Of a stretch of 64,000 nt of DNA, positions 25,377 through 63,102 are shown piece after piece. The first letter of the stretch is position 1. Every line of letters starts with the position of its first letter. Position numbers and translations under genes: made by a program. Origin of the DNA: Bdellovibrionales bacterium (GTDB lineage Bacteria; Bdellovibrionota; Bdellovibrionia; Bdellovibrionales; JAMPXM01); NCBI GenBank assembly GCA_016713885.1, contig JADJOF010000007.1:175206-239205 (forward strand), given 5' to 3'. Under the pieces are notes generated by a model. It was not told the DNA's origin and searched no databases. It saw only the letters and a program-made list of their open reading frames with translations.

Positions 25377-27709
25377 ACCAACTCCATGCTTAGCTGTCCT
25401 TCAAGTGGCTCATCAATGATCTCGTCGTCATCCTCAACGATAGCGACTGGCTTGTTTCGATTGTGAAAGTTGACGGCTGCATCTCTAGGATTGACCGTCA
25501 CCTTGAATGAGTCTCGGTCACTCGTCCCATTGATGACTGCGTCTTCAGCGTGCGCAATCATCCGATAAGCTAAATCGAAATAGCTCCGCTTAAGTTCTGC
25601 ACCGACAAATCGACGTCCCATTTGAACCGAAACGACGCCTTCTGATCCGATACCAGTAAACGGCGAGAACACGAGGTCATCTTTCGCCGACCACAGGTCA
25701 AGGCACCGATGAATCAGATCAAGTTGAAGTGGCGCAATGTGACGCTCATCCTCATCTTCTCGGGCGATGCGGCCGTTAAGCGTGTTCGATTGCTTAATGT
25801 CAAACCACACTGGGCTTGCATAATGTTGCCATCTATCCACAGGGAACTCCTCAGGAGTGTGCGCGATCGGCTTCGTATTCACGCCGGGCTTTCGGAATGT
25901 GACCACGTAGTCAGGCAGACCTTGGCGGCTCATTGATGAGTCTTTCTTGATCTGCTTCCAGAGAAGTCCAAGCGCCTTGGTTCGCTGCATCGCCACGACT
26001 GGGTCTTTCCAAATACAGACCTCAGAATGATAGATGAACCCACGCTTTTGAAACTCACGGATGACATCACCTCTGAAATCACGAATGCCGATCACGCCGT
26101 CACGCTGCTTTGACGTTGTCAGATTCATGCAATGAATCGATACATTTCGACCTGGACGCATGATGCGAGCCATCTCATCAACCAAGAATCCGAAATGGAC
26201 CCAGAACTCGTCGTAGTTCTTTGAGTTTCCCATGTCCCGATCACTGTTTGAGTAAGTGTAAAGCGATGAGAACGGCGGCGAGAATACCGAGTAGTCGATT
26301 GAATCGGAATCAATTGAACGAGCGACCTCAACGCAATCACCGTTGTAAATATCAAACAGCCTGCCTGATTCACGGCGAAGATTATATGTCGAGACCTCGC
26401 GAGTGAGCTGTCTGACTTCGCGCTCTTGAAACTCTCTCATGTGCTCAACGAGTGACGCCGCCATTTCTTCGGCCTGCGCCTCTTTCCGTTTGATGTTCTC
26501 AAGGACTGGACCCTCAGCAGCGTGAGCGATCATGGTCACAGTCACGGGCCTAGTCTGACCGAAACGGTAGCAGCGGCGAATCGCCTGATATATCTGCTCA
26601 AAGGAATCACTTAAACCTACGAATGCCATTTGATTGCAGTGCTGCCAATTCAAACCAAACCCTGCGATTTTTGGCTTGCTGATTAGAACGCGAAGCCTGC
26701 CTTCTGCGAAATCAATCAAGGCCTTCTCTTTCTTCTCAAGCTTGTCAGATCCTTTGATCTCGACCGATCCCGGAATCAGACTAGCAAGCTTCTCACTCTC
26801 ATCGTTTCTATGGCACCACACGACGAACGGACCTTCGGACTTGTTGACCAAGTCAGCGCAAGCCGAGACGCGCTCGTCTACCGTTTCGCGCTTTACTTGT
26901 TGACGGGCCTGAATGCCGTACACTTCCGGCGCAGTCTCAGTCATCTCACCAACGCTATGCATATTCATGATGAGCTCTGGCAAGTCGTAGCCTTCAGCCG
27001 AGAACCCGATATCAGATGGCTTTTTGATAAATACAGACCATGTCGCAAGCCACTCCCAGAACTTCGCTTTGCCGTGACCTTTAAGCCGCCACTTTGAAGT
27101 CTCGCCCGAGTCATGGATGAAAAACATCGAGAGCATTTCAACTTGGCTCATGACGCCAAGAAACTCAGCTTGTGAGCCGAGCTCCATGAAGTCATTGGGC
27201 GATGGCGTCGCAGTACAGCTAAGCCTGTACGGTATCTTTGAGCAGAGCTCAATCACCTGCGCCCTGGTCTTTGAATCCTGATGCTTAATGATCGACGACT
27301 CATCAAGACAGACGCCGTCGAAGTATCCGCGCTCAATGCCATCTCTAAAGTTCTCGAGCATCTCGTAGTTCGTGATGTAAATGCCGGTCTCTTCGTCAAA
27401 CTCGCGCGCGTACTTGATCGGAATGCCAAGCTTGTCAGCTTCGCGTATCGTCTGCTGCGCAACGCAAAGAGGCGCCACGATCAACACTCGATTGCCAGTG
27501 TACTGATGAACAGCCTCAGCCCATGCGCTTTGGATGAATGACTTGCCTAGTCCAGTGTCGGCGAATACCGCTGCGCGCCCACGCTTTAAAGCCCATTTTA
27601 CGATTGCGGCTTGAAACGGAAACAGCATCTCAGGCAGTGGCATATTGGCGTCAAAGCCAGACGGCGCATCGTAGCGCGCTTTTGAGTTTAAGAATGTCTG
27701 ATAGTCCAT
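25373..27709 (-). CDS. SNF2-family helicase fused to a beta-class N4/N6 DNA methyltransferase
   Basis: Helicase motifs ADTGLGKS, CLDESS and QAIRRCYRFGQ. Methyltransferase motif IV FSPPFSSLY lies upstream of motif I FSPFTGIGSEG. The start was moved to MDYQTF (GGGGGGA RBS). Confidence 0.85.
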   Translation of the reverse strand: MDYQTFLNSKARYDAPSGFDANMPLPEMLFPFQAAIVKWALKRGRAAVFADTGLGKSFIQSAWAEAVHQYTGNRVLIVAPLCVAQQTIREADKLGIPIKYAREFDEETGIYITNYEMLENFRDGIERGYFDGVCLDESSIIKHQDSKTRAQVIELCSKIPYRLSCTATPSPNDFMELGSQAEFLGVMSQVEMLSMFFIHDSGETSKWRLKGHGKAKFWEWLATWSVFIKKPSDIGFSAEGYDLPELIMNMHSVGEMTETAPEVYGIQARQQVKRETVDERVSACADLVNKSEGPFVVWCHRNDESEKLASLIPGSVEIKGSDKLEKKEKALIDFAEGRLRVLISKPKIAGFGLNWQHCNQMAFVGLSDSFEQIYQAIRRCYRFGQTRPVTVTMIAHAAEGPVLENIKRKEAQAEEMAASLVEHMREFQEREVRQLTREVSTYNLRRESGRLFDIYNGDCVEVARSIDSDSIDYSVFSPPFSSLYTYSNSDRDMGNSKNYDEFWVHFGFLVDEMARIMRPGRNVSIHCMNLTTSKQRDGVIGIRDFRGDVIREFQKRGFIYHSEVCIWKDPVVAMQRTKALGLLWKQIKKDSSMSRQGLPDYVVTFRKPGVNTKPIAHTPEEFPVDRWQHYASPVWFDIKQSNTLNGRIAREDEDERHIAPLQLDLIHRCLDLWSAKDDLVFSPFTGIGSEGVVSVQMGRRFVGAELKRSYFDLAYRMIAHAEDAVINGTSDRDSFKVTVNPRDAAVNFHNRNKPVAIVEDDDEIIDEPLEGQLSMELV

Positions 27710-27729
27710 AGTCGTCCCCCCGGAAACAC

Positions 27730-27942
27730 TCACGGCTTCACCTCTATCCCCTCTAAGACTTCTCGCATTTCGGCGAGCGCTTTGGTTGATATATCGAAGC
27801 AAACATTCCTGTCGACAGTTTCGCACTGGCAATCGATCGAGATTCGCTCCAACGCTTTTATTGCCAACAACATCGCTTTACTGTGTGCAATGGCTGTCAA
27901 TTTAACGCCGTCTAGCATCTTAAGAATTTCGGTGTCGGTCAT
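27730..27942 (-). CDS. Hypothetical phage protein
   Basis: 70 aa. Tightly packed in the early leftward operon. Confidence 0.45.
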   Translation of the reverse strand: MTDTEILKMLDGVKLTAIAHSKAMLLAIKALERISIDCQCETVDRNVCFDISTKALAEMREVLEGIEVKP

Positions 27943-31458: not shown

Positions 31459-31552
31459 GATTAGTATAGTAAGCCTTTCGATATCAAAAGACAAGTCAAA
31501 TGATTAGTTTGGTCTGTTTTTTATCGAAAGGAAACACGTTAGGCTTATTTTG
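31459..31552. promoter_or_regulatory. Immunity switch region with dyad-symmetric operator candidates
   Basis: CCTTTCGATATCAAAAG (31474-31490) is a pseudo-palindrome around GATATC. TATCGAAAGG (31522-31531) is the inverted copy of CCTTTCGATA. Outer inverted pair AAGCCT (31471-31476) / AGGCTT (31541-31546). Confidence 0.55.
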
Positions 31553-31963
31553 ATGAGTGTTTACGGCGGATTAGCCGACAGAATAAGGGACCACAGAAAG
31601 GCCCTAAAATTGACCCAGAGCGGGCTTGCTGAGCGCGCGGGGCTGTCGTTTGCCACGATCCAGGCACTCGAACGAGGGGCATCAAATCCTGAGCGAAAGA
31701 CCTTAGCGGCCATCGCCACAGCCCTCGACATATCGATTGGCGATCTTTTGGGAGAAACCGTTGAGCCGGCACCTATGGCCGCTCGCTCGATCACCCAGGA
31801 GGCGGCGATGCACCCTACCCTAAAGGACGTCGTCGTGATCCTTGATAGGCTTGAATCGGTATCACCTGAGCGGCGGGCGGCGGCTCTTGCGATTCTTTTC
31901 GACGACTCTTCGCTTGCGCCAGAATCTTTCGATCTTGCTCAGCTTGCCTCAACAAAGCGTTAA
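31553..31963 (+). CDS. XRE-family HTH repressor (cI-like; no S24 peptidase domain evident)
   Basis: LKLTQSGLAERAGLSFATIQALERGASNPERKTLAAIATALDISIGDLL. Confidence 0.75.
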   Translation: MSVYGGLADRIRDHRKALKLTQSGLAERAGLSFATIQALERGASNPERKTLAAIATALDISIGDLLGETVEPAPMAARSITQEAAMHPTLKDVVVILDRLESVSPERRAAALAILFDDSSLAPESFDLAQLASTKR

Positions 31964-32102: not shown

Positions 32103-32612
32103 ATGAACAACCATGGAGGCTATGTGCAATTTGTCGTGATTCTGATCGCTCTCGTGATGGTTTTCGCAAATCAAGATGCAGAGGCTCAGAGCGCTGAAAC
32201 CCTCTGGAGAGCGCGATCCCTCGAGGCTAAGGACAATATCAAACGACTACTGGACTCCAAGAAAGTAGCAAAGAAAGTTGAGTGCGAGTTCCTTATCGAG
32301 CAGGCGTTTGAAGGCCTAAATGATCCAAAGTTCAAAGCGTTTTCAAAGACCGATAAGGGTGGGTTAACGGTACTGCTGACCATCGGCGACCCAAAGACAA
32401 AATCCTTACTCGGACTGGCCTTTCTATTCGGGGACGACAGCCGCAGGCCACTATTCATTCGTCCGATTTTCTTTGAAGACGCCAGCAAAACTGCTTGGAC
32501 ATTTGCAATTACGCCACTCACTTCGGGCGGCACTTTTGGTATAGAGACAAAGGACTGCGAATTTTTATTCTCCTCTGAGAACTATCTGAGTCCATCTGTG
32601 AAGGCCAAGTAG
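32103..32612 (+). CDS. Exported protein, unknown function (moron downstream of the repressor)
   Basis: 169 aa. Signal peptide VVILIALVMVFANQDAEA. Same strand as cI and opposite to all neighbouring phage genes. Confidence 0.45.
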   Translation: MNNHGGYVQFVVILIALVMVFANQDAEAQSAETLWRARSLEAKDNIKRLLDSKKVAKKVECEFLIEQAFEGLNDPKFKAFSKTDKGGLTVLLTIGDPKTKSLLGLAFLFGDDSRRPLFIRPIFFEDASKTAWTFAITPLTSGGTFGIETKDCEFLFSSENYLSPSVKAK

Positions 32613-32704
32613 TCCCGCACCGAGCCTTGATTCTGTCAGGCTTTGACAGATCATTTAAGAATCAGCCACAAGTCTGTTATTCTATGACAGCGGGCTAATC
32701 AAGG

Positions 32705-32983
32705 ATGAGAGGCTCGTTTTTCATGAAACTAAAAGGCGCATTTTTTCCAGAGATCCGAAAGGTCGCATCCGAAAAGCTTCAGATTGAGCTCGGCTGTAGT
32801 CCCGAAGTCGCAAAGATATTTCACCCGAGTATGCGGACCGATATCATCCCAGACGATTCAGCCGTTTGGATTCAAGCCTGCACGCTCCAGCAATGGGAAG
32901 AGTACGCAGGCGAATGGGAGCACGAGGCGGCCCATGGCTTTGAACTGGAAGTCGATCCGCCGCCAGCCTATTTGATGCACTGA
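32705..32983 (+). CDS. Small cytoplasmic protein, unknown function (moron)
   Basis: 92 aa (or 86 aa from the ATG at 32723). Same strand as cI. Confidence 0.4.
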   Translation: MRGSFFMKLKGAFFPEIRKVASEKLQIELGCSPEVAKIFHPSMRTDIIPDDSAVWIQACTLQQWEEYAGEWEHEAAHGFELEVDPPPAYLMH

Positions 32984-33117
32984 CGTTTCGCGATCATCTC
33001 GATTTCATCCTGAAGCCGCTTGATCTGCACAGCTTGGCTGAATGCCAAGTGCGCAAGTGGCAGCACCAGCGCCATGGCGAGAATCATCACAAGCACTGCG
33101 ACGCCAAGCCGGGTCAT
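32968..33117 (-). CDS. Unlisted 49-aa single-TM protein, last gene of the lysis cassette
   Basis: MTRLGVAVLVMILAMALVLPLAHLAFSQAVQIKRLQDEIEMIAKRQCIK. The ATG overlaps the upstream TGA (ATGA at 33114-33117). Confidence 0.4.
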   Translation of the reverse strand: MTRLGVAVLVMILAMALVLPLAHLAFSQAVQIKRLQDEIEMIAKRQCIK

Positions 33118-33395
33118 TCAGAGTCTCGCTGGTCAGCTTCATCCCTCTGGTCGGCGCGCATCTCTGCGAACCTGCCAGTGAGCTCTGCGCCGCCCGTACG
33201 ATTGAGCTCTTGCTCGAGAAGGATATTCTCGATCCGACGAATCTTCACGAACGCGCGCCTACGAGCCCCACGAAGTGCGATGATCACCCGAGAGAAGGCA
33301 GTCATCACCATTGCGGCCCCGCCACACAGCGCACCGACGACCTTCACGAAGTCATCGGCACCCATTCCAAACACGGCCGCGACTGTTTCGATCAC
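33114..33395 (-). CDS. i-spanin-like membrane protein
   Basis: The GTG at 33395 overlaps the endolysin TGA (GTGA). TM segment VVGALCGGAAMVMTAF is followed by a charged coiled region. Confidence 0.4.
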   Translation of the reverse strand: MIETVAAVFGMGADDFVKVVGALCGGAAMVMTAFSRVIIALRGARRRAFVKIRRIENILLEQELNRTGGAELTGRFAEMRADQRDEADQRDSE

Positions 33396-33820
33396 GCGTA
33401 CACCGGCATGAGAATGGCGACGACATCTTTCCGATGATTCCACGGTCTGATTCTGACAAACGCGTTCTGCTCAATCGCGTCCTTTTCAGTGAGCGTCTTC
33501 GAACCGCCGCCGCCAGCTTCAATGACGTGCTGATCATCGATCATGAATGCAATGTGAGTGATCTTGTCTGGCCTTAGGCCATAGAACACCAAGGCGCCAG
33601 GGCCTCTCATCTCACGCTCTGAAACGCTCAAGTAAAACTCAAACATTGCCTGCGCTGACTGATCACCTTTCGGGTCCATACCGACTGATGCAAGAATCTC
33701 TTGCACGAGGCCAGAGCAATCATAGCCACGCATCGGATCATCCCCGCCCCAAATGTATGGCCTACCGACAAAGTGCCACGCGTACTCGCAAGCAATCATC
33801 TTTTTGACCATCATCGCCAC
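33392..33820 (-). CDS. NlpC/P60-family cell-wall hydrolase (endolysin)
   Basis: 142 aa. YIWGGDDPMRGYDCSGLVQEIL (catalytic Cys) and HIAFMIDDQHVIEAGGG (His). Confidence 0.8.
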   Translation of the reverse strand: MAMMVKKMIACEYAWHFVGRPYIWGGDDPMRGYDCSGLVQEILASVGMDPKGDQSAQAMFEFYLSVSEREMRGPGALVFYGLRPDKITHIAFMIDDQHVIEAGGGGSKTLTEKDAIEQNAFVRIRPWNHRKDVVAILMPVYA

Positions 33821-34134: not shown

Positions 34135-34282
34135 CCTCAGTCCTTGCCATCTTTGCCTGTTCAACCAAAAGCCTGACCTGTTCAAGATCCGCTGCATTCG
34201 TGCGTTTCACCTGCGCTTCGATGATGAGATCGATCACGCGCTGAAGTGCGATGAGAAGCTCGATGATCTTGACTACGGTCAT
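34079..34282 (-). CDS. Hypothetical small protein (coiled, charged)
   Basis: 67 aa. The ATG overlaps the stop of the holin-like ORF (ATGA). Confidence 0.4.
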   Translation of the reverse strand: MTVVKIIELLIALQRVIDLIIEAQVKRTNAADLEQVRLLVEQAKMARTEDDKIKAAKELRDAFKTKR

Positions 34283-34431
34283 TCTGGTTTTGGCTCTTTG
34301 CCGAGTAGCTTTTTTGACACGTTGATCACGAACTGCAAAATGCCGTTCGACTTCAGTGCCGGGATAAGCGCAAGAGCCTCGCTCACTGCGAGAAGTGCTG
34401 CTAAGATGATGACCAGTGATTCATTTTCCAT
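34279..34431 (-). CDS. Unlisted 50-aa holin-like membrane protein
   Basis: MENESLVIILAALLAVSEALALIPALKSNGILQFVINVSKKLLGKEPKPE. AAGGAG RBS 6 nt upstream. Below the ORF-track cutoff. Confidence 0.5.
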   Translation of the reverse strand: MENESLVIILAALLAVSEALALIPALKSNGILQFVINVSKKLLGKEPKPE

Positions 34432-34460
34432 TGTTTACTCCTTTGAAGTTACGTGTTTAC
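34432..34460 (-). promoter_or_regulatory. Direct repeat GGAGTAAACA x2 (22-bp phase) upstream of the holin-like gene
   Basis: Plus-strand TGTTTACTCC at 34432-34441 and 34454-34463. The proximal copy doubles as the RBS. Confidence 0.35.
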
Positions 34461-34489
34461 TCCGACGATCCATTCAACGTGTGCCTTCA

Positions 34490-48670: not shown

Positions 48671-49627
48671 TCAATCCTGTTGCGCCATCTGTGCGCGGCG
48701 AAGCTTCTCGTAGTCTCGCTGCGACATATTGGCGACGGCCGGGTCATAGATCGACTTCGGTGAAGAATTCGACCGCTGCCCGACTGGATTGATTGGAGCT
48801 GGAGCGTTTGATTTTTTTACTTCTGGTTTTTTCGCTTCAGTTTGTTTCGCGATGCGTGCTGTGAACTGACCCATGGCAAAAGCGGCGTCTTTCGCGTTCA
48901 TACGGCAAATGCGCTCGTAGTTCTTGCGATCTTTCGCCAGCTCATACATGAGTTCGGCACCGTTCTCAGCGTCGAGGAGTATGTCTTGAACGATTGGCGA
49001 CATCTGAACATCGTCAACGGCCTCGATCACGTCCGCGAAATCATCGTGAGTTTCTTGAAAGGTTTTGACCTGTGTTCGGAACGAATCAGTGCGCTTTTGA
49101 TACTCGGTCTTTATGCGAGTCTCTTGCTCACGCTGATCGCGCTCCTTTTGCTTCTGCTCGACTTTCCAATCCGTTAACGCTTCGACATAGTCGGCGTGCG
49201 TATCGAAATCATCGGGCGTTGGCTTGCCATCAGTTGAAGCGGCTTGCTTTGGCGGTGTCTTGGCGGCTGGCTCTTTTTCAGTGTCACCACTGCGCTTTAA
49301 AGCCTCTTGCCTCCAATATTCGAGCTCCTGTTCTTTCGCCGAAAGGCGAGAGTTCAGTTTGTCGATCCGCTTTTTAAAGCCGTTCTTCTTGGGCTTGTGG
49401 TCTTCCTTTGCCTCAAGACTCTCATCTTGATCGTCGTCTGATTCGGTCTCAGTCGACTCCGCATCGTTTTCCGACGTGTCCGATTCGTCAGTGATTTCAT
49501 CCGAAGCCTCAAGAGCCTCAGACGCGGACTTGGTTTCGTCTACCTTCACGGGCTGAGCGGCGCCTTTTGCTGCGTCAGCAGCTACGCTCTCTTTTGTGTC
49601 AGAAGTTGAAACGACTGTGATTGCCAT
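48671..49627 (-). CDS. Scaffolding protein
   Basis: 318 aa, very acidic N-terminal half and helical charged remainder. Lies between the portal and coat genes. Confidence 0.5.
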   Translation of the reverse strand: MAITVVSTSDTKESVAADAAKGAAQPVKVDETKSASEALEASDEITDESDTSENDAESTETESDDDQDESLEAKEDHKPKKNGFKKRIDKLNSRLSAKEQELEYWRQEALKRSGDTEKEPAAKTPPKQAASTDGKPTPDDFDTHADYVEALTDWKVEQKQKERDQREQETRIKTEYQKRTDSFRTQVKTFQETHDDFADVIEAVDDVQMSPIVQDILLDAENGAELMYELAKDRKNYERICRMNAKDAAFAMGQFTARIAKQTEAKKPEVKKSNAPAPINPVGQRSNSSPKSIYDPAVANMSQRDYEKLRRAQMAQQD

Positions 49628-49632
49628 GGTGT

Positions 49633-51831
49633 TTACTCCACGAATTGACCGGGTGATAAGCCGCCCGTAGCTGGTTGATCGGATGGCTGAGCGCCCATTT
49701 CTGGACCCTCGGCCATTTCAAAATCTTGGTTTTCTTGTGATTCATCCTCGATCGGCTCGTTTTGCCGAAGGAGATTCATGCGCCGCTCAAGCTGAGCCAT
49801 CTCGGCCTTGAAAAGCGCCAGTGAGTCGGTGGCGTCGATCTTTGCCATCTCGATTTGGAGTTGAACTTGAAGCTTCTGCATCTCGATGCGCTCGCGCGAC
49901 TCAAGCTCGATGGTCTTATTCTCAAGCTTGTCCATTGCTTCGTTATGCTTAGCTGTGAGCTGCTCGATGATTTGATTCATCTGAGCCATCTGCGCTTGTG
50001 CTTCAGGCGGCAATGGCTGTTTCTTCGGATCGTCGGCAAGTCCTGGCGGCAGCGTTTTTCTGAGACGCTCGGCCAACTCCTGAGCTCCAGGGAGATCGAG
50101 GTTCTTAACGATAAGATCCGGTGCGGCTGTGCCCATTGCTGGAACCGATTTCGCAAGTTCGAGCATTGAGCTCGCGGCTTCTTGGCGCTTAGTCGCGTAA
50201 CTTGGACCAGTCTCAATCGACACGTCGTATTTTCCGACGCCAAGATTGAACTGCGTTTTCTTCCCGTTTCGCTCGAACATCTCGTTAATGCGAACGATCT
50301 CCTCTGTGCCGTCTTCGCCTAGGATGCGAACCGCGCGACCCGTATCCATGACCTTTGGGATCAGCTCAACGAGCTGACGGCCGCAGTGACGAATCGAGCG
50401 AGAAAGATTGTCGACGAAATGGAAGTTTGAAGTCTGCGCCTGGTTCGCTCTGCGCTGGATAGCAACGCCTGATTGCTCATTTGAACGCTGACCAAGAGCT
50501 GCGTCATAGACGCCGGTCGTGGCCTTCATATCTTCACTCGCCATCATGCCGGCTTGAGTGATCGCCTGAATCGGCGGCTCAAACACGTTACGCTGAGGCG
50601 GTCCTACCGGTTGGCCATTGAGTGAGACCGGCTTATAAGGAAGGTACGCATGCGATTGTACGTTCGCTGTCTTCCAGATCTGTTTATAGTCTTCGATCTG
50701 GCCTTCGGCTACGATCCACGGCGCCTTTGGGGCCATCGCGATCGTCTCGGTCTCAGCCGACTTCCAATAGTTGTACATTCGCTGCGAGTCTTTCGCGTGG
50801 CGAATGATGCCCTCAAGAACGCGCTTTCCTTCAATGTCGAGCTCTTCGCCAAGGACTGGAATGATTGGAATCCATCGCCCTGGCCAATCGGTCTTTTCTA
50901 AGGCCTCGACTGCGTTTATTTTGCACCAACGAACTACTGGCACCTTTGATTTTCGCTCACCAATGACTTGAAGTGGCTGGCCGTCGGCCGATGGCGGGAA
51001 TATCGTCTCTTCTGATTCGACGAGCACTGGAAACCCATCGTCGCCAATCGCCTCAGTCACGACCTTCGTCTTCTCGAGATCCTCTTTGATGACAGTGCTG
51101 CCATCGGACATTTTGAGAAGCGTGACGTCTCGGTAGTCTTTGTAGAAATATTCGGCAATGCGAACCGTATCATCTGCGATCCAGCCAACGCGGTGCTGAC
51201 CGATAGCGTCCCAGCTATCCATCGACGAGAGTTCGCTATCAGGATAGAGGCGCTTGTACTCTTCGTGTGGAACGTCATCAAAGATGAATCCCCACTCAGC
51301 ATCAGAGCCGTCTGGCATTTTGTACGATGGGTCAAGGTAGGCCGAGAATCGGTTCTTTATCGGCTCGATTCTGATATCGAGATCAAATGACATTGGATCG
51401 CTGTAGGCCGTGCGGATTCTGAAATATCCAAAGCCAGTGCGAACAGCGGAATCAAACGCCGTGTCATAAGCGACATCGGCGTCAGAGGAGTTTTCAACGT
51501 GGCGAATGATCCCTTGCAGAATCTTCGCTGTTTCAATATCGGCTTTGTCGTCGACAGGTGAGACCTTAACGGAAGGTCTATTTTGACGCTGATCATTTAC
51601 GATCTGGCGAATGAATTGTGGTAGGCGATTGATAGTTAAGCACGGCCGACGATCAAGCTCGCGCTGGTCTTTATCGCGCAGGTCCCACTGTTCACCTGCT
51701 CCGAATTTGAGATCCTCAAGAGCGAGCTCTCTGACCTCGCGTTCGGCCTCAGCCGCTAGGTCAAAGCGCGCCCTTGCGATCTCGAGAAGCTTCGATTCAT
51801 CTTGATTCTGATTCTCTTTTTCGGATTGCAC
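49633..51831 (-). CDS. Portal protein (large, P22-like, with a long C-terminal coiled barrel)
   Basis: 732 aa. C-terminal heptad-rich QMNQIIEQLTAKHNEAMDKLENKTIELESRERIEMQKLQVQLQIEMAKI. GTG start. Follows terL. Confidence 0.7.
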   Translation of the reverse strand: MQSEKENQNQDESKLLEIARARFDLAAEAEREVRELALEDLKFGAGEQWDLRDKDQRELDRRPCLTINRLPQFIRQIVNDQRQNRPSVKVSPVDDKADIETAKILQGIIRHVENSSDADVAYDTAFDSAVRTGFGYFRIRTAYSDPMSFDLDIRIEPIKNRFSAYLDPSYKMPDGSDAEWGFIFDDVPHEEYKRLYPDSELSSMDSWDAIGQHRVGWIADDTVRIAEYFYKDYRDVTLLKMSDGSTVIKEDLEKTKVVTEAIGDDGFPVLVESEETIFPPSADGQPLQVIGERKSKVPVVRWCKINAVEALEKTDWPGRWIPIIPVLGEELDIEGKRVLEGIIRHAKDSQRMYNYWKSAETETIAMAPKAPWIVAEGQIEDYKQIWKTANVQSHAYLPYKPVSLNGQPVGPPQRNVFEPPIQAITQAGMMASEDMKATTGVYDAALGQRSNEQSGVAIQRRANQAQTSNFHFVDNLSRSIRHCGRQLVELIPKVMDTGRAVRILGEDGTEEIVRINEMFERNGKKTQFNLGVGKYDVSIETGPSYATKRQEAASSMLELAKSVPAMGTAAPDLIVKNLDLPGAQELAERLRKTLPPGLADDPKKQPLPPEAQAQMAQMNQIIEQLTAKHNEAMDKLENKTIELESRERIEMQKLQVQLQIEMAKIDATDSLALFKAEMAQLERRMNLLRQNEPIEDESQENQDFEMAEGPEMGAQPSDQPATGGLSPGQFVE

Positions 51832-51855
51832 GCTCTAAGAGTCGACGTGCTCCGA

Positions 51856-51894
51856 TGTTTACTCTACGTATACAAAAGTTTACTTTGCGTTTAC
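51856..51894 (-). promoter_or_regulatory. GTAAAC x3 array upstream of the portal gene (paralogue of the terS-upstream array)
   Basis: Plus-strand GTTTAC at 51857, 51878 and 51889. It shares TGTTTACTCTAYGT and GTTTACTTTG with 54481-54512. Confidence 0.4.
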
Positions 51895-52151
51895 TTCGAT
51901 GCCGACAAAGGCCCCGCGACTTCCGGCTGAGCGCCGACGCTGTATCGGATCTTTTCGGCAAAGTTTCCCTCTTTCATCGCGACCGAACGAATGCCAAAGA
52001 ACATCGCCTCTTCAAGCTTCGTCTTAAAGATCGCTTTCTCTCGACCTTCGGGCATGATCTTGAGCACAGCTTCAACTGCCTCAGTCATGATCATCTTGAT
52101 CGCCTTCACTTCATCGAAGCCTTTGTCGTTCAGTTTGTACGTTTCAAACAT
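51891..52151 (-). CDS. Hypothetical phage protein
   Basis: 86 aa. Confidence 0.4.
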   Translation of the reverse strand: MFETYKLNDKGFDEVKAIKMIMTEAVEAVLKIMPEGREKAIFKTKLEEAMFFGIRSVAMKEGNFAEKIRYSVGAQPEVAGPLSASK

Positions 52152-52470
52152 GACTTGCTCCTTTTGATTGCAGTTGACGAATAACCCGAATCATCTCCCT
52201 AACTTTTCGCGCCTCATCTATTGGAAGTGTAGACGGCTGTGAGTCGAGATGACAGTTTTTAAACTTCTTTCCGCTGTCACACGGGCATGGCTCATTTCGT
52301 CCGTAGCCTAGAAGCGGATTCCATTCCGTTCCTGGATTTGGCGTGTAGTGATACTTCGCTCCAGACAGAATTTTCTCTCTGTTCTCATTGGCCTCTTTTT
52401 GCATCTTTTGGACGATAGCCCGATGCCTGAGACCAACGATAAACGCGATGATGAACTTGATAAGCTTCAT
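52144..52470 (-). CDS. Membrane-anchored protein with a SEC-C metal-binding motif
   Basis: 108 aa. N-terminal TM segment LIKFIIAFIVGL. CPCDSGKKFKNCH motif. Confidence 0.5.
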   Translation of the reverse strand: MKLIKFIIAFIVGLRHRAIVQKMQKEANENREKILSGAKYHYTPNPGTEWNPLLGYGRNEPCPCDSGKKFKNCHLDSQPSTLPIDEARKVREMIRVIRQLQSKGASHV

Positions 52471-52473
52471 ATT

Positions 52474-53934
52474 CTACCCCATCCAACTGCCGCCGTTGCC
52501 AAAGTTCGACAGCTCTTGATGTTCTTTCGCTCTTGATTTGCCAGTGACCGGCACTGCAAAACTCAGAGCCAAAGCATCGGCTCTGTTTGGACTTGGCAGG
52601 CCGCGCGCCTTCATGTCTTTCTTCGACTCAAGCTGAAGCTTCCCGTCCATTCGTGGCACTGTTTCAGGCCCGGTGAGTTCCATGTGGAGCTTGTTGTCGC
52701 CGTTGATTGAGCCGCCTTCTTTGAGCCAATCGCGCGTGAGCTTCCACATTTCAGCCCGTTTATTGAGACATCCCTCGTCATTCGGCGCACCTGAAAACCA
52801 AATCAAATGCCAATTGCGACGCATGGTTTTGCCGGCCGAGACGATGCCAGTTCCATAGCCTGCATCAACGATCACAGCGTCGGCTTTCTCTTCGTCTTCG
52901 ATCGAGGCGATAAGCGACGCCATTTGAAGGTCATTGTCGTTCTTTGGAATCGTGCGCATGATCTTAAACGACAAGCCTTGCCTCATGCCTATCACGAACT
53001 CATCGTCACCTTCCCACGCAGGATCGACAGTGATGATCTTAGGCGCAAAGTCGAACTGCTTTGTCTCAAGCTTTAGCGAAAGTGCTCGGTCAGCATCCTC
53101 TGTCGAAATGAATTGCTTCATCGACATATTCGGGAACAGCCCGCGAACGCGAACCTTCACAAAGTCAGAGTCTTCGCCGTAGTCTTCAACCCACTTCTGG
53201 ATCTGAGCCTTATTTGTACCTTTGACAGTCCTGGAATCGATCTGCCACGTCCGCCATCGATGGCGAAGCCTGCCGAAACAGTCCTTAAATCGCCCGGTGT
53301 TTCTCGTTGGGTTTCCGAATGCGATCCAGACGATCTCGGTCTCTTCGTCGGTGAGAGCGCCTTCTGTCACATCCCAGACCTTATCTGAGATCGCCGATGC
53401 CTCATCGAATATGACGATGATTCTCTTTTTCTTGTTGTGAAGACCGGCAAACGCTTCAGTATTGTTGTCAGACCACGTCACCTGATCGGCGCGCCAAGTC
53501 TTCTCATGCCCCGTCTCGATTGAATGAACGGCCGTTGCTGTTGTTTTAAACCAGTGTGATGTGATCGATCGCCTGGTCCAAGTTGTGAGCTCTGGCCAAG
53601 TCTTAGTCCTGAGCTGCGTTTCAGTGTTCGCGGTGATCACGACCTTGCAATCTTCACAAGTCGAAAGGCCCCAATTGACGATGATTGAAATGAGCGCTGA
53701 TTTCCCGATCCCGTGACCTGAGGCAACGGCTAAAAGCAGCGGCATGAATCTAGTTTCAGTATTTTGAAGATGCTCGTCGATTGCGCACAAGACTTCGTCT
53801 TGCCATTCTCTTGGCCCGTCTTCTTGGTCTAGTTCAGCCTCGCCCCATGAATACGAGAAACGCGCAAAGCCGCGCGAATCGTGAGTGAACCGCGCCATCT
53901 CCTCGATGAGCTCAATCTCTGCGTCATTCGCCAC
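52474..53934 (-). CDS. terL: Terminase large subunit
   Basis: 486 aa. Walker A-like VASGHGIGKSALI. Walker B IIVIFDEASAI. C-terminal nuclease region with acidic residues. Confidence 0.8.
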   Translation of the reverse strand: MANDAEIELIEEMARFTHDSRGFARFSYSWGEAELDQEDGPREWQDEVLCAIDEHLQNTETRFMPLLLAVASGHGIGKSALISIIVNWGLSTCEDCKVVITANTETQLRTKTWPELTTWTRRSITSHWFKTTATAVHSIETGHEKTWRADQVTWSDNNTEAFAGLHNKKKRIIVIFDEASAISDKVWDVTEGALTDEETEIVWIAFGNPTRNTGRFKDCFGRLRHRWRTWQIDSRTVKGTNKAQIQKWVEDYGEDSDFVKVRVRGLFPNMSMKQFISTEDADRALSLKLETKQFDFAPKIITVDPAWEGDDEFVIGMRQGLSFKIMRTIPKNDNDLQMASLIASIEDEEKADAVIVDAGYGTGIVSAGKTMRRNWHLIWFSGAPNDEGCLNKRAEMWKLTRDWLKEGGSINGDNKLHMELTGPETVPRMDGKLQLESKKDMKARGLPSPNRADALALSFAVPVTGKSRAKEHQELSNFGNGGSWMG

Positions 53935-54457
53935 GGACGCGCTTTCTGGCCTTCGCCAATCGATCAGAGATCGTGACTGATCCGCTGACCTCGACCTTGT
54001 CTGTGAGAAGCTTCAAATGCCTTGCGAGAATCTCAAGCGACTTCGGCTTATCCCAGAACTTCACCTCGCGGACTTCGCCGATCTTCACTCTGTCGGCGCC
54101 GAATCCTTCGAACTCCTCAAAGACCTTGACCCCGGACATCGCGCGCCTGGTGTCTTCTGGTATTTCATGGATCGGCTTGAGTCTGCCTTGCTCATCGTAG
54201 GCCCCGGAAAGATCAGCCGTTGCGATTCGCATGAGTTCTTTTAGGACATTGTCGGCGGTGATGTTGGTTCGCTTTGAGCGTTTGTCCATTTCGGCTTGGA
54301 TTGCGGCCGCTACTTCTGGTTTCTTGAGGTTTTCAGAGCCAATTTTTTCAGCGGTCTTCTCTGAATACTTCGCCCTGATCGCCGCCTGCGTCGCATTAAG
54401 ATCGATGAGGTACTCTTCAACAAAGCGTTTCTGTTTGGGCGTGAGGTCGCTTGCCAT
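53924..54457 (-). CDS. terS: Terminase small subunit
   Basis: 177 aa. LTPKQKRFVEEYLIDLNATQAAIRAKYSEKTAEKIGSENLKKPEV is typical of Terminase_2-type small subunits. Confidence 0.7.
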   Translation of the reverse strand: MASDLTPKQKRFVEEYLIDLNATQAAIRAKYSEKTAEKIGSENLKKPEVAAAIQAEMDKRSKRTNITADNVLKELMRIATADLSGAYDEQGRLKPIHEIPEDTRRAMSGVKVFEEFEGFGADRVKIGEVREVKFWDKPKSLEILARHLKLLTDKVEVSGSVTISDRLAKARKRVRGE

Positions 54458-54480
54458 GGCTCAATTGTCCACGTCTTAAA

Positions 54481-54509
54481 TGTTTACTCTATGTTTACGT
54501 TGTGTTTAC
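54481..54509. promoter_or_regulatory. Three TGTTTAC repeats at exact 11-bp phase in the terS / RHH divergent intergenic region
   Basis: TGTTTAC at 54481-54487, 54492-54498 and 54503-54509. Confidence 0.5.
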
Positions 54510-54550
54510 TTTGTCCCTAGATAGGCTCTTGCTGTGATGAGGGGGCTCTC

Positions 54551-54766
54551 GTGGGAAAGAATCAGTCAGCCAATGAATTTGACTTCAACCAGATCAAAGA
54601 ATTCGACATCAATGACCGACTGATCACGATTCGCGTCCCTGACGAGTACAAGACGAAGTATGACATCATCCAGGCGATGTCTCGAAAGCGCTTCGCCGAT
54701 CACCTTCGGCAGCTTATCGTTGCGGCAATCGACCGCGTTGACCTTGATTCAACCAAGGCTTGTTAA
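54551..54766 (+). CDS. Ribbon-helix-helix (Arc/Mnt/CopG-like) DNA-binding protein
   Basis: 71 aa. Beta-strand LITIRVPDE followed by two helices (YKTKYDIIQAM, RKRFADHLRQLIVAAI). GTG start with a GAGGGGG RBS. It is the only plus-strand gene between 33 and 61.6 kb. Confidence 0.45.
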   Translation: MGKNQSANEFDFNQIKEFDINDRLITIRVPDEYKTKYDIIQAMSRKRFADHLRQLIVAAIDRVDLDSTKAC

Positions 54767-57404: not shown

Positions 57405-57642
57405 GTTTCACCGCCTCTCTATACATGAGCACAGCGAGCTGCCGCGCTAGTTGTGACTCGAAGTCATATTCAAACATCTCCGGCAGCATTATTGAGGTGT
57501 CTACAAAGTCCGCATAATGAAGGAGGGCGCTATCACCACAGTATTTCTCAACGGCGGTGCATGAATACCTATGAGGTCCTTGAACCCGTAGACTCTCAGC
57601 CGCACGCATGAGCCTGTCGAGTCGTTCACGCTTAGTCATCAA
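57391..57642 (-). CDS. Hypothetical phage protein
   Basis: 83 aa. Confidence 0.4.
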   Translation of the reverse strand: MMTKRERLDRLMRAAESLRVQGPHRYSCTAVEKYCGDSALLHYADFVDTSIMLPEMFEYDFESQLARQLAVLMYREAVKRGEA

Positions 57643-58129
57643 GCACCTCTGTCAAATTCAAATTAGCAAACTCTCCGAAAAGGTTTCTTGCCGCCGCGTC
57701 ATATGCCTTCGCTGCGTCTTCTCTTTGCTCGAATAACCCTAAGTTAAACCTGTCCCCATTGTGCGTGATGATCGCACGCCATTTGTTACGAACTGCATAG
57801 ACGCCCTTGATTCCAGAAGTGCTATTCAGGTACTTCCGCTTGTTCATCATGTTTTGCGCGCTAGAGCATACCCTCAGGTTTGATCGGCGGTTATTCAACC
57901 CGTTCCCGTCTATATGATCCACCTGGAGTTTTGATTCGGTGACTCCGAGAATTAACCTGTGCAGTCGGATCGTCTTCTGTTTTCCGTTCTCATATATAGA
58001 AGTTCCAGCGTAAGACGAACGGGGAGACTTCATCACATACCAAGCATGTTTTCTCACGAGGTCAAAATCAGCCTCATCGATCAGTGTGACCGCACCTTTT
58101 GTAAGTTGAATTTCCATCGGCTTATTCAT
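57632..58129 (-). CDS. HNH homing-type endonuclease with an AP2 DNA-binding domain
   Basis: LHRLILGV..QVDHIDGNGLNNRRSNLRV (HNH_3-type). IKGVYAVRNKWRAIITHNGDRFNLGLFEQREDAAKAYDAAA (AP2). Confidence 0.75.
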   Translation of the reverse strand: MNKPMEIQLTKGAVTLIDEADFDLVRKHAWYVMKSPRSSYAGTSIYENGKQKTIRLHRLILGVTESKLQVDHIDGNGLNNRRSNLRVCSSAQNMMNKRKYLNSTSGIKGVYAVRNKWRAIITHNGDRFNLGLFEQREDAAKAYDAAARNLFGEFANLNLTEVLDD

Positions 58130-59937: not shown

Positions 59938-60833
59938 GCGCCCGCCTTTCCAAATCGAGTTTGGATTTCTTGCTTCAGCCGCGCAGCCTGTTCCGCAGAA
60001 AGTGGCGGCGGAGACTGGGCCTGGTCTGGTTGTGACGAGGATTGGGCGGGCGGCGCGTAAAGCTGAGCCCTAGGGGTGCAACGGTACTCCCCCTCCATGA
60101 CGGCAATATGCGTCCGTGGGCGAGTGAGGAAATCAAATGTCGCCAACCACTCCCGGTCGTTCTTGCCACGGCAAAACTCCGACCTCGCGATTCTGTCGAT
60201 GACATCGACCCACCTTGCTCGATCAGGCTCCTCGCAGATTCTTGCAGATGCAGCTTTCCAGCGTTCTTGTGTTTTTTTGAATCGGCCCATATCCACTAGC
60301 GGCATTGGCTTTCCCGCCACAGACTTCATCCCCGACATTCTCGCGTTCCAAAGTTGAGCGAGCTCGGGCGGCTCAAAAGTTTCTCCCGTACCCTCTTCAA
60401 AAGAATCTACTACACAACACTCCACTACACTTGGAGTGTCGGGTGACACTTCGGTAAGTGTCGGTGAAGTGTCGGGTGACACTCTAGGTACCTTTAAATT
60501 CGAGTCCATAAGACCAAGTCTCTGAAGTTTGTTGACGGCCGCCTGCTTAGCGCGGAAGCCATCCTTCGACTCGCCGTATTGAAACTCGAAGAACGTGACG
60601 AGGAAGAACTTGTCTGTATCAAATTTGATAACCTTCTCGCCAAACCACTCAGTCAGATTTGACTCTGTGACAGGAAATCCAAGATGAAAAGACATCTGAG
60701 GAAAGTCGCCGGGCCATATTCCGGCGTGATCGCACTGGTCGCAAAGATACAGAAACGCAAGCTTTGCCTTGAACGGTAGCTCACGGAACGACGGCCGCTT
60801 CCACTTGTCGGTGTCGGTGAATCGCTTAGGCAT
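59934..60833 (-). CDS. Replisome-organiser-like replication protein
   Basis: 299 aa. N-terminal FTDTDKWKRPSFRELPFKAKLAFLYLCDQCDHAGIW is typical of phage replisome-organiser N-domains. Confidence 0.45.
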   Translation of the reverse strand: MPKRFTDTDKWKRPSFRELPFKAKLAFLYLCDQCDHAGIWPGDFPQMSFHLGFPVTESNLTEWFGEKVIKFDTDKFFLVTFFEFQYGESKDGFRAKQAAVNKLQRLGLMDSNLKVPRVSPDTSPTLTEVSPDTPSVVECCVVDSFEEGTGETFEPPELAQLWNARMSGMKSVAGKPMPLVDMGRFKKTQERWKAASARICEEPDRARWVDVIDRIARSEFCRGKNDREWLATFDFLTRPRTHIAVMEGEYRCTPRAQLYAPPAQSSSQPDQAQSPPPLSAEQAARLKQEIQTRFGKAGA

Positions 60834-61623
60834 CGATCACCTCTGCCATCGAATCATTAAACTGCATGATGCCAGTCGAATTCATGACGTTTGCCGAAAT
60901 GAGATCGAGCGATAGGCCATGTTTTTCGTGGTACGTTAAAATGTCACGATGGAGTGACTGCCTATTGCAATGATACCAACGCTTTGATGCAAGACCGACG
61001 ATGCGATTTACCTGCGCAATCATCGGATTCTCGCGTTCCAGTTTCTGCCAATAGCAGATCCTTGGGATGTAGTAAAGGAATGCGTCAACAGACTGAGTCG
61101 AGGTGTCCTTCAGGTAGGTCATAACCGATTTGTCGATAGCCGAATAAATGTCTTCAACGGAGTAACGCCGGAGCATATTGCGTATGTCCGATAGATACGT
61201 GTCTGATATTTTGAATTCCGAACTTCTGAGGTTACGATTTATATAGTCAGCGATAGACTTGATAGCGTTCTCCTCGAGACCGACCATCGAGTTTCGCCAC
61301 TCTGCCATCATCGCGAGCTGTTCTTGCCTTAAGCTGATCGCCTTCATTTGATCGAGCTGCTTTTTGACGACGGTAGAGTCACTGAGAGTCCTGGCGCCCT
61401 TTCCTAGATTGCAGGAAACGCAGGAGGTGACGAGGTTTAGAACTTCGTTCTGGCCACCGGCCGCGACCGGATTGATATGATCGACGTGAAGGATTGCATC
61501 CGGCGCTGACATGCCACAATACTGGCAAGTAAAGGCATCACGTTTAAATACCTCAAAACGAAGCTTTTTCGAGATCGCCTTTCTGCTTACCTTCTTCTCA
61601 TTCTGAATCGGATCTTGTTCCAT
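60826..61623 (-). CDS. HNH endonuclease-domain protein with a C-terminal domain of unknown function
   Basis: 265 aa. FKRDAFTCQYCG..LHVDHINPVAAGGQNEVLNLVTSCVSCNLGKG. Confidence 0.7.
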   Translation of the reverse strand: MEQDPIQNEKKVSRKAISKKLRFEVFKRDAFTCQYCGMSAPDAILHVDHINPVAAGGQNEVLNLVTSCVSCNLGKGARTLSDSTVVKKQLDQMKAISLRQEQLAMMAEWRNSMVGLEENAIKSIADYINRNLRSSEFKISDTYLSDIRNMLRRYSVEDIYSAIDKSVMTYLKDTSTQSVDAFLYYIPRICYWQKLERENPMIAQVNRIVGLASKRWYHCNRQSLHRDILTYHEKHGLSLDLISANVMNSTGIMQFNDSMAEVIDA

Positions 61624-61977: not shown

Positions 61978-61994
61978 TTCACCAGTTTTTCACC
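61978..61994 (+). promoter_or_regulatory. Arm-type repeat TTCACCAGTTTTTCACC (copy 2)
   Basis: Identical to 61741-61757. It overlaps the int2 stop codon. Confidence 0.45.
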
Positions 61995-63102
61995 CCACAC
62001 TTTCGCGTCCTGTTCCGAGGCGGAAGTGCGCCGCAACTGCGTTTAATTGCTTCTCGTCGAATCGGATGTAGTGCTTCATCGCGACCTTCATCGACATGCC
62101 TAGAGCTGAACAGACCACGACAGGGTTGAGCGCAGGATTTGAAAACGCCCGCGTCGCATAGCTCGCGCGGAAGTCATGGAATCGGCCGTCGATACCGAGC
62201 GCCTGCCTAAGCTTTGTCCACGGTTTCTTGAATCCGCCCTTGTCCATAGGGCGCTTTTCGTCCCACGCGTTCGGGAAAACATACGGGCTTTTCGGATAGT
62301 CGGCGCACTGTTTCTTCAGCGCCTCAATGACCTCGGAATGGATCGGAACCACACGACTCTGTCCGGTCTTCGTGTCTGTTTTCTTGAGCCTGATGCAGCC
62401 TGCGCCCCAGTCCATTCGGTCTTTGGCGAGCTGCGTAATTTCACTCGACCGCATGCCCATGTACTGGGCCATGATGATCCAAAGCCTGACGGCCTGTTCC
62501 GGGGCCTGGACGCCATCCTTGCCGTCGCGGAACTGCATCAACTGCTCGTCTGTGTACGACTTCCCGACGCCATCGTCCTCGTCGTACTCTGCATCAGGGT
62601 TGTAAATGTCAGGCGCACGAATGATATACCCGACAGCAAGGCACCAACTAAAGAACCCGGAAAGGTACTTCCAATGGTTCAAAAACTTGGTCGCGTCCCC
62701 TGACTTCGACTTCTCTTTGACGTGGGCCATGTACTCAACCCAAGCGTCACCCGTGATCTGATCAACGCGCATCGATCCAAAGAATGGTTTATACCATCGC
62801 TCTCCGAAGTGAATGTATTCCTTGATCGTGCGCTCACGGACCTTCGCAATGCCTCGAACCTTGCCCGTGGCCTTCGCTTCGATGAACTCTTCCCACGCGT
62901 CTTCAAAGATCTCTTTTTCACGACGCCAGTCCTCACCAAGAAGGATCGCCTTCTCGATGTCTTCAGCAAGCTTTTGCGCAACGGCAAAGTTCTTTGTGTT
63001 CAGCGCTTTCTGCACACGTTGGCCCTTGCAAGAAAACCTTGCATGGTACCACTCGCCGATGCGCTTGATGCGGCTGTCTCTGGTGTCCTGATAGTGATTC
63101 AT
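61990..63102 (-). CDS. int: Tyrosine site-specific integrase (unit 2; not similar to int of unit 1)
   Basis: 370 aa. GMRSSEITQLAKDRM, HDFRASYATRA and AMKHYIRF. Confidence 0.9.
   Translation of the reverse strand: MNHYQDTRDSRIKRIGEWYHARFSCKGQRVQKALNTKNFAVAQKLAEDIEKAILLGEDWRREKEIFEDAWEEFIEAKATGKVRGIAKVRERTIKEYIHFGERWYKPFFGSMRVDQITGDAWVEYMAHVKEKSKSGDATKFLNHWKYLSGFFSWCLAVGYIIRAPDIYNPDAEYDEDDGVGKSYTDEQLMQFRDGKDGVQAPEQAVRLWIIMAQYMGMRSSEITQLAKDRMDWGAGCIRLKKTDTKTGQSRVVPIHSEVIEALKKQCADYPKSPYVFPNAWDEKRPMDKGGFKKPWTKLRQALGIDGRFHDFRASYATRAFSNPALNPVVVCSALGMSMKVAMKHYIRFDEKQLNAVAAHFRLGTGRESVG

Follow-up and report, generated by a model that had tools for sequence, protein, structure and literature searches.

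A lone reversed gene beside terS and two matched arrays of one-turn-spaced hexamers point to a ribbon-helix-helix-like regulator of late genes in P22-type phage DNA from a Bdellovibrionales bacterium

The stretch analysed here is 64,000 nucleotides of DNA from a Bdellovibrionales bacterium (GenBank assembly GCA_016713885.1, contig JADJOF010000007.1, positions 175,206 to 239,205), which is referred to as the window. All positions count from its first letter. The window holds a phage region with P22-type head genes, in which the gene for the small terminase subunit, terS, is separated by 93 base pairs (bp; 54458-54550) from a small gene of 71 amino acids on the opposite strand. A short repeat occurs three times in this gap, and four related units lie upstream of the portal gene. 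The subject of this analysis is the small gene and its relation to the two arrays. The central features are the following.

54551..54766, plus strand: the small gene, 71 amino acids, GTG start, a predicted strand-helix-helix DNA-binding protein
54540..54546, plus strand: GAGGGGG, Shine-Dalgarno-like, about 5 nucleotides before the GTG of the small gene (read directly)
54481..54509, plus strand: array 1, three TGTTTAC units, which on the minus strand read GTAAACA towards terS
53924..54457, minus strand: terS, small terminase subunit, the first gene of the packaging/late operon (Pfam Terminase_2, expectation value (E) 1.9e-44)
51856..51894, plus strand: array 2, with TGTTTAC at 51856, CGTATAC at 51867, AGTTTAC at 51877 and CGTTTAC at 51888
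49633..51831, minus strand: the P22-type portal gene, the first behind array 2 (Pfam P22_portal, E 5.6e-194)

The small gene interrupts a long run of genes on the other strand. From 34.4 kilobases (kb) to the end of the window minus-strand open reading frames tile the sequence in an unbroken block, and the statement of the first-pass annotation that the small gene is the sole plus-strand gene of this late/replication block holds for approximately 34.4-64 kb. It is also the only plus-strand gene in the database gene calls of the sister contigs. Its 3' end overlaps the 3' end of a convergent gene for an ABA-sandwich protein by 18 nucleotides.

The three TGTTTAC copies of array 1 stand at 54481-54487, 54492-54498 and 54503-54509 on the plus strand, in exact 11-bp steps; they had been reported at these places and were found there again when the positions were re-read. 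The sequence of the array is identical across six sister contigs. Array 2, previously described only as a related array at 51832-51894, is real and consists of four units with steps of 11, 10 and 11 bp in the same orientation as array 1. It is placed between a gene for a protein like the Acb2/Tad1 hairpin and the P22-type portal gene. The two arrays, when followed along the minus strand, terminate in an identical TAGAGTAAACAT.

Several counts were used to judge whether such arrays could arise by chance. The 7-mer TGTTTAC occurs 13 times in the window where 3.35 copies are expected, a number reached by none of 100 shuffles. The phased two-unit pattern, with at most two mismatches, is found four times against 0.17 expected. 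Chains of at least three GTTTAC-like hexamers spaced by 10-12 bp number just two in the 64 kb, with a shuffle mean of 0.085, and both lie on the same strand, one upstream of terS and the other upstream of the portal gene. By an arithmetic estimate, any 7-mer repeated three times at exact 11-bp steps is expected about 2e-4 times per 64 kb of random sequence. Chance is ruled out as the origin of the arrays because these expectations are far exceeded. Each genome examined has two arrays of this kind and no others.

One further site in the window has two copies of the repeat.

34432..34460, plus strand: a possible third site, weak, with two exact TGTTTAC copies 22 bp apart, each within GGAGTAAACA

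It lies directly upstream of an open reading frame for a holin-like protein of 50 amino acids (34279-34431, minus strand), which opens the lysis cassette. The first-pass annotation counted 34432-34463 as another array. The two exact copies are there, but at twice the spacing and inside ribosome-binding contexts, and the site is a weak candidate only. The holin-like gene and the scaffold gene both use the GGAGTAAACA element as Shine-Dalgarno sequence with spacer (34429-34441 and 49625-49639). The core GTAAAC thus also occurs singly inside the ribosome-binding sites of these two genes.

Judged from sequence comparison, the small open reading frame is a real, conserved gene. In an exhaustive HMMER search 32 distant homologues came up, 70-96 amino acids long, which share the motif ITxWxPxxYKxKYDxIQxxSxxxFxKxLRExxxxAIDxV. 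A word-indexed search with the small protein found only a cluster that is 99% identical. The window protein has no match in Pfam or PHROG. No DNA or protein relatives of the small gene were found in 50,697 GenBank phage records, and none in IMG/VR (single-protein queries) or in the GTDB representative genomes. Most members carry a motif (L/I)D(S/D)(I/V)(L/I)xxF(D)L before the core; in the window protein it falls within residues 8-20 and is predicted to be disordered.

The protein had been assigned to the ribbon-helix-helix (RHH) class on the layout of its sequence, a strand followed by two helices. AlphaFold, run with the family alignment, predicts this same layout: a disordered N-terminus, an extended segment at residues 21-30 with a predicted local distance difference test (pLDDT) score of 86, and helices at 31-44 and 48-61 with pLDDT of 90-94. 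For the trimmed core, modelled with 31 sequences, the pLDDT is 93.2, with an extended segment at 1-11, a helix at 12-24, a loop and a helix at 29-42. These models are monomers in which no strand is assigned, the beta-ribbon of a dimer being outside the model. A basic loop, SRKRF, precedes helix 2, and the proposed DNA-reading strand is LITIRVP, residues 23-29. In a Foldseek search of the PDB the core model has a sole match, SvtR (2kel), over 45 of 48 residues with template modelling scores of 0.56/0.58, a root-mean-square deviation of 3.1 and E 6.1. In the models, topology and size are those of an RHH monomer. The earlier assignment thus stands for the predicted layout and lacks a significant sequence or fold match, and we describe the protein as RHH-like, not as a demonstrated member of the RHH class.

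The strongest evidence on what reads the repeats comes from related phages that carry other versions of the small gene. The phages of the window, L127 and L147 have three alleles of the small protein which are 51-56% identical to each other. TerS of the L127 and L147 phages, whose repeat cores differ, is identical to that of the window at 176/177 and 173/177 residues. The alleles and their arrays, with a fourth and more distant allele, are given below with the sequence of the predicted strand.

Window allele (window, L001-L006), strand LITIRVP: terS side GTTTAC three times; portal side GTTTAC, GTATAC, GTTTAC, GTTTAC
Allele P0034 (L146-L149), strand ILSVRIP: terS side GTTTAC, GTATAC, GTTTAC, GTTTAC at exactly 11 bp; portal side GTATAC three times, then GTTTAC, at exactly 11 bp
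Allele P0002 (L127, L128), strand MIAIKLP: terS side GATAAC, GTTAAC, GTTAC, GTAAAC, GTTTAAC; portal side GTTAAC, GTTAAC, GTTATC, GTTGAC
Allele P0004, more distant (L130), strand VFTIRIP: terS side GTATAC three times at exactly 11 bp, then GTTTAC

The alleles differ in the predicted strand, and the cores differ with them. Strands LITIRVP, ILSVRIP and VFTIRIP, which have T or S together with R, pair with GTTTAC or GTATAC in all 19 phased units. The strand MIAIKLP, with A and K, pairs with cores of the GTTAAC type (GTTAAC, GATAAC, GTTATC and similar ones) in 8 of 9 units over both arrays. The cores GTATAC and GTTAAC are perfectly palindromic, with GTTTAC as their hybrid; cores of this kind suit a two-fold symmetric dimer reading one major groove.

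The backbones in which these changes are set are near-identical. Over 5.4 kb, the window and L127 fall below an identity of 0.75 in 40 columns in just four places, which are a patch in the portal gene, the portal array, the SEC-C gene, and the gap with the first 50 or so codons of the small gene. Between the window and L147 identity is low at the gap and small gene and at the SEC-C gene, the coat and scaffold genes are broadly diverged, and two of the four cores of the portal array are changed. In both L127 and L147 the cores of array 2 are exchanged while the flanks stay constant. Array 2 lies 2.6 kb from the small gene, across the highly conserved terS and terL, so linkage alone cannot explain the joint change of the two arrays. 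The joint change of allele and array is a direct observation. The first-pass annotation had paired the small protein with the repeats, and this pairing is borne out in that both arrays change with the allele in near-identical phages. On the sequences compared, the small protein is very probably the reader of these repeats.

The distance between the arrays and the start codons behind them is fixed. On the minus strand, the gene-proximal unit is always preceded by T[TAG]GA, giving T[TAG]GAGT, and the start codon follows 28-29 nucleotides on. The pattern T[TAG]GAGT-N16/17-NAnnnT-N6-ATG/GTG is kept in four alleles and in both operons while the intervening sequence differs. The hexamers and spacing recall a promoter, and the candidate elements are as follows.

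54486..54491, minus strand: TAGAGT, putative -35-like hexamer of a terS promoter, overlapping unit 1 of the array
54464..54469, minus strand: GACAAT, putative -10-like hexamer, exactly 6 nucleotides before the terS ATG
51838..51866, minus strand: putative portal promoter, with TAGAGT (51861-51866), a 17-nucleotide spacer and GACTCT (51838-51843)
54518..54525, plus strand: TAGATAGG, a weak candidate for the -10 of a small-gene promoter

The GACTCT element stands 6 nucleotides before the GTG start of the portal gene at 51831. The NAnnnT hexamers are GACAAT for terS and GACTCT for the portal gene in the window; L127 and L147 have the same portal hexamer, with GATATT and TACTTT before their respective terS genes, and L130 has GACGCT. 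A regular expression made from the first cases gives two hits in the window, those at terS and the portal gene, against 0.04 expected. In 155 kb of related loci the same expression finds the portal GTG of the distant L138, as TAGAGT-17-GAAAAT-6-GTG, and this site is preceded by three GTWWAC-like units. Neither terS nor the portal gene has a usable Shine-Dalgarno sequence, whereas the holin-like, scaffold and small genes have one. We infer from this arrangement weak sigma-70-like promoters whose transcripts would begin at the start codons of terS and the portal gene or directly beside them, and the terS mRNA would then be leaderless or near-leaderless. On the other strand, the GATAG(G/T) of the candidate -10 of the small gene is kept in three alleles (window, L127 and L147).

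In L147, which has allele P0034, an extra inverted core occurs at 7923-7928, 15 bp from unit 1 and out of phase with it, over the putative terS -10. A role of the array as an RNA structure was considered and rejected, as the minus-strand RNA folds worse than its shuffles (z +1.56).

The place of the small gene is conserved. At every locus recovered the homologue is the one gene that is reversed, and it diverges from the gene that opens the packaging module. This first gene encodes a TerS of the Terminase_2 family in the window, L001-L006, L127, L146-L149 and L136, a TerS of the P22 gp3 type (GP3_package) in L129, an HTH_23 TerS-like protein in L132 and L133, and a ParB-like methylase in L130 and L135. 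As the first gene varies among lineages, the small gene appears tied to the start of the late/packaging operon and not to a given terminase. It is monocistronic, and its 3' end overlaps or abuts a convergent gene wherever that end was read.

Phased units were also sought beyond the close relatives. A generic test for phased 6-mers across 14 lineages, which has moderate power only, finds chains of at least three units in seven gaps (window, L147, L130, L131, L135, L140 and L143). The units of the L135 gap are GTTTTAAGAAA, CTTTAAACAAA and CTTTTAACTTT. In the remaining lineages the motifs are AGTTT(T)A-like and differently spaced, or no clear motif is seen.

A scan of IMG/VR for GTTTAC-N5 repeated three times returned more than 120 loci, which are a mixture of 11-bp tandem arrays. 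Many of the arrays in these contigs (L007-L126) abut a minus-strand start codon, and approximately 25 contigs share CCGGTTTACTACCGGTTTACTACCGGTTTACCGGTTTAC. These contigs were rejected as evidence for the system: a hidden Markov model of the family finds no members in them, hence they are unrelated.

We propose the following model for the locus. The 71-amino acid gene would encode a small dimeric DNA-binding protein of the RHH type, of which one dimer would bind each six-base, near-palindromic core (GTTTAC or GTATAC in the phage of the window). With cores one helical turn apart, several dimers could sit next to each other on one face of the DNA and bind cooperatively. Successive dimers are likewise arranged on one DNA face in the complexes of CopG, Arc and omega, and in those of ParR (PMC9426499). 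The targets would be the three units in the terS/small-gene gap and the four upstream of the portal gene, centred near -28, -39 and -50 of the putative promoters, with a further unit near -61 in the portal array. The units in the terS gap would also cover the back-to-back promoter of the small gene. The protein would then repress both late promoters and its own, and expression of the packaging and head genes would be gated in the prophage or early in infection.

Repression is favoured because unit 1 overlaps the -35-like hexamer and the spacer, because the extra unit of L147 covers the -10-like hexamer, because the promoter elements are complete, though weak, and because the RHH regulators SvtR, CopG, NikR and MetJ are described as repressors (PMC5569661). 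On these grounds the protein probably acts as a repressor, by a modest preference. The whole model, an autoregulated RHH-like repressor gating two late promoters, we consider slightly favoured on what the sequences suggest. An autoregulated RHH switch had been suggested by the first-pass annotation; its pairing of protein and repeats has gained from the co-variation of the alleles, while autoregulation and the direction of control are suggested by the geometry.

How the gate would be opened is a matter of speculation. Leftward early transcription could run antisense through the small gene, silence it and thus open the gate. This idea is raised because the small gene lies head-on to the early genes, and a sigma-70/terminator scan found no terminator between these and terS.

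A number of observations weigh against this model. As to the fold, no significant match to any RHH family is found in Pfam, NCBIfam or PDB profiles. The Pfam RHH_1 family is reached by one of the 32 family members, at E 0.16, and the NCBIfam model of a RelB-like antitoxin is matched below threshold by three of 32, the best at E 0.011. PDB profile searches gave nothing relevant, only spurious L18 matches, and hhalign against Arc and CopG found nothing. The fold match to SvtR is not significant (E 6.1); the full-length model has no Foldseek match in the PDB, and its BFVD matches are non-significant. As to the repeats, the difference between the cores of the alleles is small, being confined to two central bases, the GTTAAC-type array at terS is degenerate, and about half of the distant family members have no clear 11-bp array. 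As to the promoters, a simple sigma-70 scan called none at the arrays. Some of the -35-like hexamers are TAGAGT, which matches at only three of six positions, and a leaderless GTG start is unusual in Proteobacteria. Finally, units upstream of a weak -35 would also suit an activator.

The last point leads to the alternative in which the same protein binds the same sites as an activator. Dimers bound near -39, -50 and -61 would bring RNA polymerase to two late promoters that are weak by themselves, and the gene would be a late-gene timer with the job of the RinA-type proteins in phages of Gram-positive bacteria. The -35- and -10-like hexamers are indeed weak and are not called by the sigma-70 scan, and the arrays stretch upstream from the -35 region as do the sites of class I/II activators. 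The conserved N-terminal motif, (L/I)D(S/D)(I/V)(L/I)xxF, lies outside the DNA-binding core and could contact another protein. Known phage regulators adjacent to terS are activators (PMC3152322, PMC3753634), and the archaeal viral RHH protein AvtR both activates and represses (PMC5569661). However, unit 1 reaches into the spacer from the final two bases of the -35-like hexamer and has its centre near -28, a position that usually blocks polymerase, and in L147 the -10-like hexamer, too, is overlapped by a further unit. Nearly all RHH regulators characterised so far repress (PMC5569661; textbook), and the RinA-type proteins are unrelated, with no match to them in Pfam. We regard activation as the main rival, though an unlikely one.

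A further alternative keeps the repressor and gives it another purpose, that of a second, allele-specific layer of immunity in temperate P22-type phages. Expressed from the prophage, the protein would shut off the leaderless late promoters in the resident phage, and likewise in any incoming phage that shares its allele. In a packaging module which is otherwise constant, diversifying selection would account for the heteroimmune alleles (GTTTAC/GTATAC versus GTTAAC). Release would come from head-on early transcription across a boundary between early and late genes that is free of terminators, through convergent transcription and a protein roadblock. This is somewhat less probable again than activation.

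The repeats could instead serve packaging, as a pac or terminase-loading site; their reader would be TerS, or else the small protein in the role of a specificity factor for packaging. They lie directly upstream of terS, and in some phages the terminase sites are phased repeats near terS, as in SPP1 pac and lambda cosB. TerS is nonetheless near-constant while the cores change, which excludes it as the reader of the repeats and as the specificity partner. A single pac site would leave the second, co-varying array at the portal gene unexplained, and the fixed distance of 28-29 nucleotides to the start codons points to gene expression. We consider such a site very improbable.

It is a shade more improbable still that the repeats are boxes for a host response regulator of the winged-helix PhoP/OmpR/PhoB type, with the small open reading frame unrelated to them. 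TGTTTA-N5-TGTTTA resembles the enterobacterial PhoP box, (T/G)GTTTA-N5-(T/G)GTTTA, and direct repeats at 11 bp suit head-to-tail winged-helix dimers. But in phages that are otherwise near-identical, a different allele of the adjacent phage protein comes with different cores in both arrays, which is hard to reconcile with a host regulator, and two of the three core types are exact palindromes, which suit a symmetric dimer rather than a head-to-tail one. Nor does the window come from E. coli. Least probable of all is that the small protein is a ParR/ParG/omega-like centromere binder or a type II antitoxin and the repeats a centromere or operator: ParR is typically an RHH protein that binds 10-11-bp direct repeats, with a minimum of two 11-bp repeats for R1 ParR (PMC9426499), ParG binds short boxes that form arrays (PMC3130281) and three of the 32 members have sub-threshold RelB-like antitoxin matches, but the monocistronic gene with its 3' overlap has no partner ATPase or toxin gene downstream, no ParA or ParM domain is found among the open reading frames scanned, the element carries integrase genes, and the arrays have just 3-5 units and stand at gene starts.

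In the surrounding sequence, bases 1 to approximately 23,000 are host-like and encode a GMC oxidoreductase, a subtilase, an insertion sequence element, a beta-CASP nuclease, a dicarboxylate symporter, a histidine kinase and AcrB. Beyond approximately 23,000 there are an integrase (23963-25009), an SNF2-methylase fusion, YqaJ/RecT and a gene of the Cro/C1 helix-turn-helix type. The early genes of the minus-strand block encode a methylase, a second tyrosine recombinase, an HNH protein, RusA, an HNH-AP2 protein and the ABA-sandwich protein. In the direction of transcription they are followed by terS, terL, the SEC-C-motif gene and the Acb2-like gene, then by the portal, scaffold, P22-type coat and tail genes, and then by the holin-like gene and an NlpC/P60 lysin (33392-33820). 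The portal protein is approximately 40% identical to the portals of proteobacterial podophages. No Rfam families or tRNA genes are found in the 64-kb window.

Between terL and the portal gene, at 51891-52470, lie genes for a protein of 86 amino acids with the Acb2/Tad1 hairpin (Pfam E 2e-7) and one of 108 amino acids with a SEC-C motif. The former may possibly be a sponge that counters the cyclic oligonucleotide-based antiphage signalling system (CBASS) or Thoeris, as judged from its family match. The SEC-C gene is absent or substituted in L127 and L147, and array 2 comes directly after this accessory island.

The two tyrosine recombinase genes (23963-25009 and 61990-63102) are both on the minus strand, at a distance of 38 kb. 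The second, which the sister contig L146 has as well, belongs to the early block. Next to the integrase is the 819-amino acid fusion of an SNF2/DEAD helicase with an N6/N4 DNA methylase (25373-27832, minus strand). Two genes for HNH endonucleases occur in the early block (57632-58129 and 60826-61623), and one of them is a fusion with an AP2 DNA-binding domain. Among the sister contigs the early region is strongly mosaic, while terS and the small gene remain linked as a module.

The Cro/C1-type protein belongs to the HTH_3 family (31550-31963, plus strand, E 2.6e-13), and its gene is divergent from small minus-strand open reading frames. Three more plus-strand open reading frames without a family match follow it (32103-33437). 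This gene probably encodes the primary immunity repressor.

In tailed phages, most of what is known of late control concerns activators and antiterminators such as Q, Ogr/Delta, C, RinA and ArpU. The present locus points to a different and simple design, in which a 71-amino acid protein would act through matched operator arrays at two late promoters. The alleles would be a ready-made specificity swap that could show how the middle base pairs of a hexamer are recognised by a two-stranded ribbon, and they could supply small orthogonal repressor/operator pairs. The family would give a name to a recurrent hypothetical gene beside terS in metagenomic phages. If the promoters proximal to the start codons are real, they also document leaderless late genes in a P22-type phage.

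Among known systems, Arc and Mnt of P22 are RHH repressors encoded inside the late region with divergent, overlapping promoters; on the Arc operator two dimers lie about one turn apart. Here, too, the phage is of the P22 type and the gene of the proposed regulator lies inside the late region at putative divergent promoters. The target of Arc and Mnt is the antirepressor gene ant, whereas terS and the portal gene stand behind the sites of the window. No ant-like gene and no second RHH-like gene was found near the small gene in the open reading frame list or in Pfam and PHROG scans, and the first-pass suggestion of an immI-like module is not supported on these two grounds. The operators of Arc and Mnt are single palindromes, unlike the arrays of 3-5 hexamers described here.

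ParR/parC, ParG/parH and omega resemble the model proposed for the locus in that their RHH dimers bind short direct repeats at 10-11 bp cooperatively and co-vary with them between related replicons (PMC9426499, PMC3130281). For the ParR proteins, both the binding to 10-11-bp direct repeats and the co-variation of protein and repeats are described (PMC9426499). They differ in that the present locus has no partner ATPase, has short arrays at the starts of late genes and belongs to an element that integrates.

RinA, ArpU, LtrC and Alt act at a promoter directly upstream of terS and control genes for packaging, morphogenesis and lysis (PMC3152322, PMC3753634). They are activators from unrelated families, found in phages of Gram-positive hosts, and no phased hexamer arrays have been described for them. 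Neither the small protein nor its homologues match these families in Pfam or PHROG.

In the cluster A mycobacteriophages the site motif and the repressor co-vary between related phages and define the specificity of immunity (PMC6550527). As proposed here, one small repressor acts at several asymmetric sites that all point the same way with respect to transcription (PMC6550527). The cluster A repressor is not RHH-like, its sites are approximately 30 single 13-bp stoperators spread over the genome, and it has a demonstrated block of elongation.

SvtR of SIRV1 (2kel) and F55 of SSV1 are, as is proposed for the small protein, small viral RHH regulators, and SvtR is the sole PDB structure matched by the core model. 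SvtR represses its own promoter and that of a virion gene, probably against premature expression, and F55 binds tandem repeats with an 11-nucleotide consensus (PMC5569661). Both belong to archaeal viruses with archaeal promoters, and the sites of SvtR are imperfect inverted repeats. They have no detectable sequence similarity to the small protein, and the fold match to SvtR falls short of significance.

Small RHH regulators of viruses or plasmids that have tandem operators and regulate themselves are known already, with Arc/Mnt, CopG, omega, ParR, SvtR and F55 as examples. What is new is a family that is absent from Pfam and PHROGs, sub-threshold in NCBIfam and not found in cultured phages or GTDB representatives, and its fixed place as the lone reversed gene at the boundary between the early and late genes of tailed phages. 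New as well, so far as the sequences indicate, are the two matched arrays at putative promoters close to the start codons of terS and the portal gene, and what appear to be natural specificity alleles on a constant packaging module.

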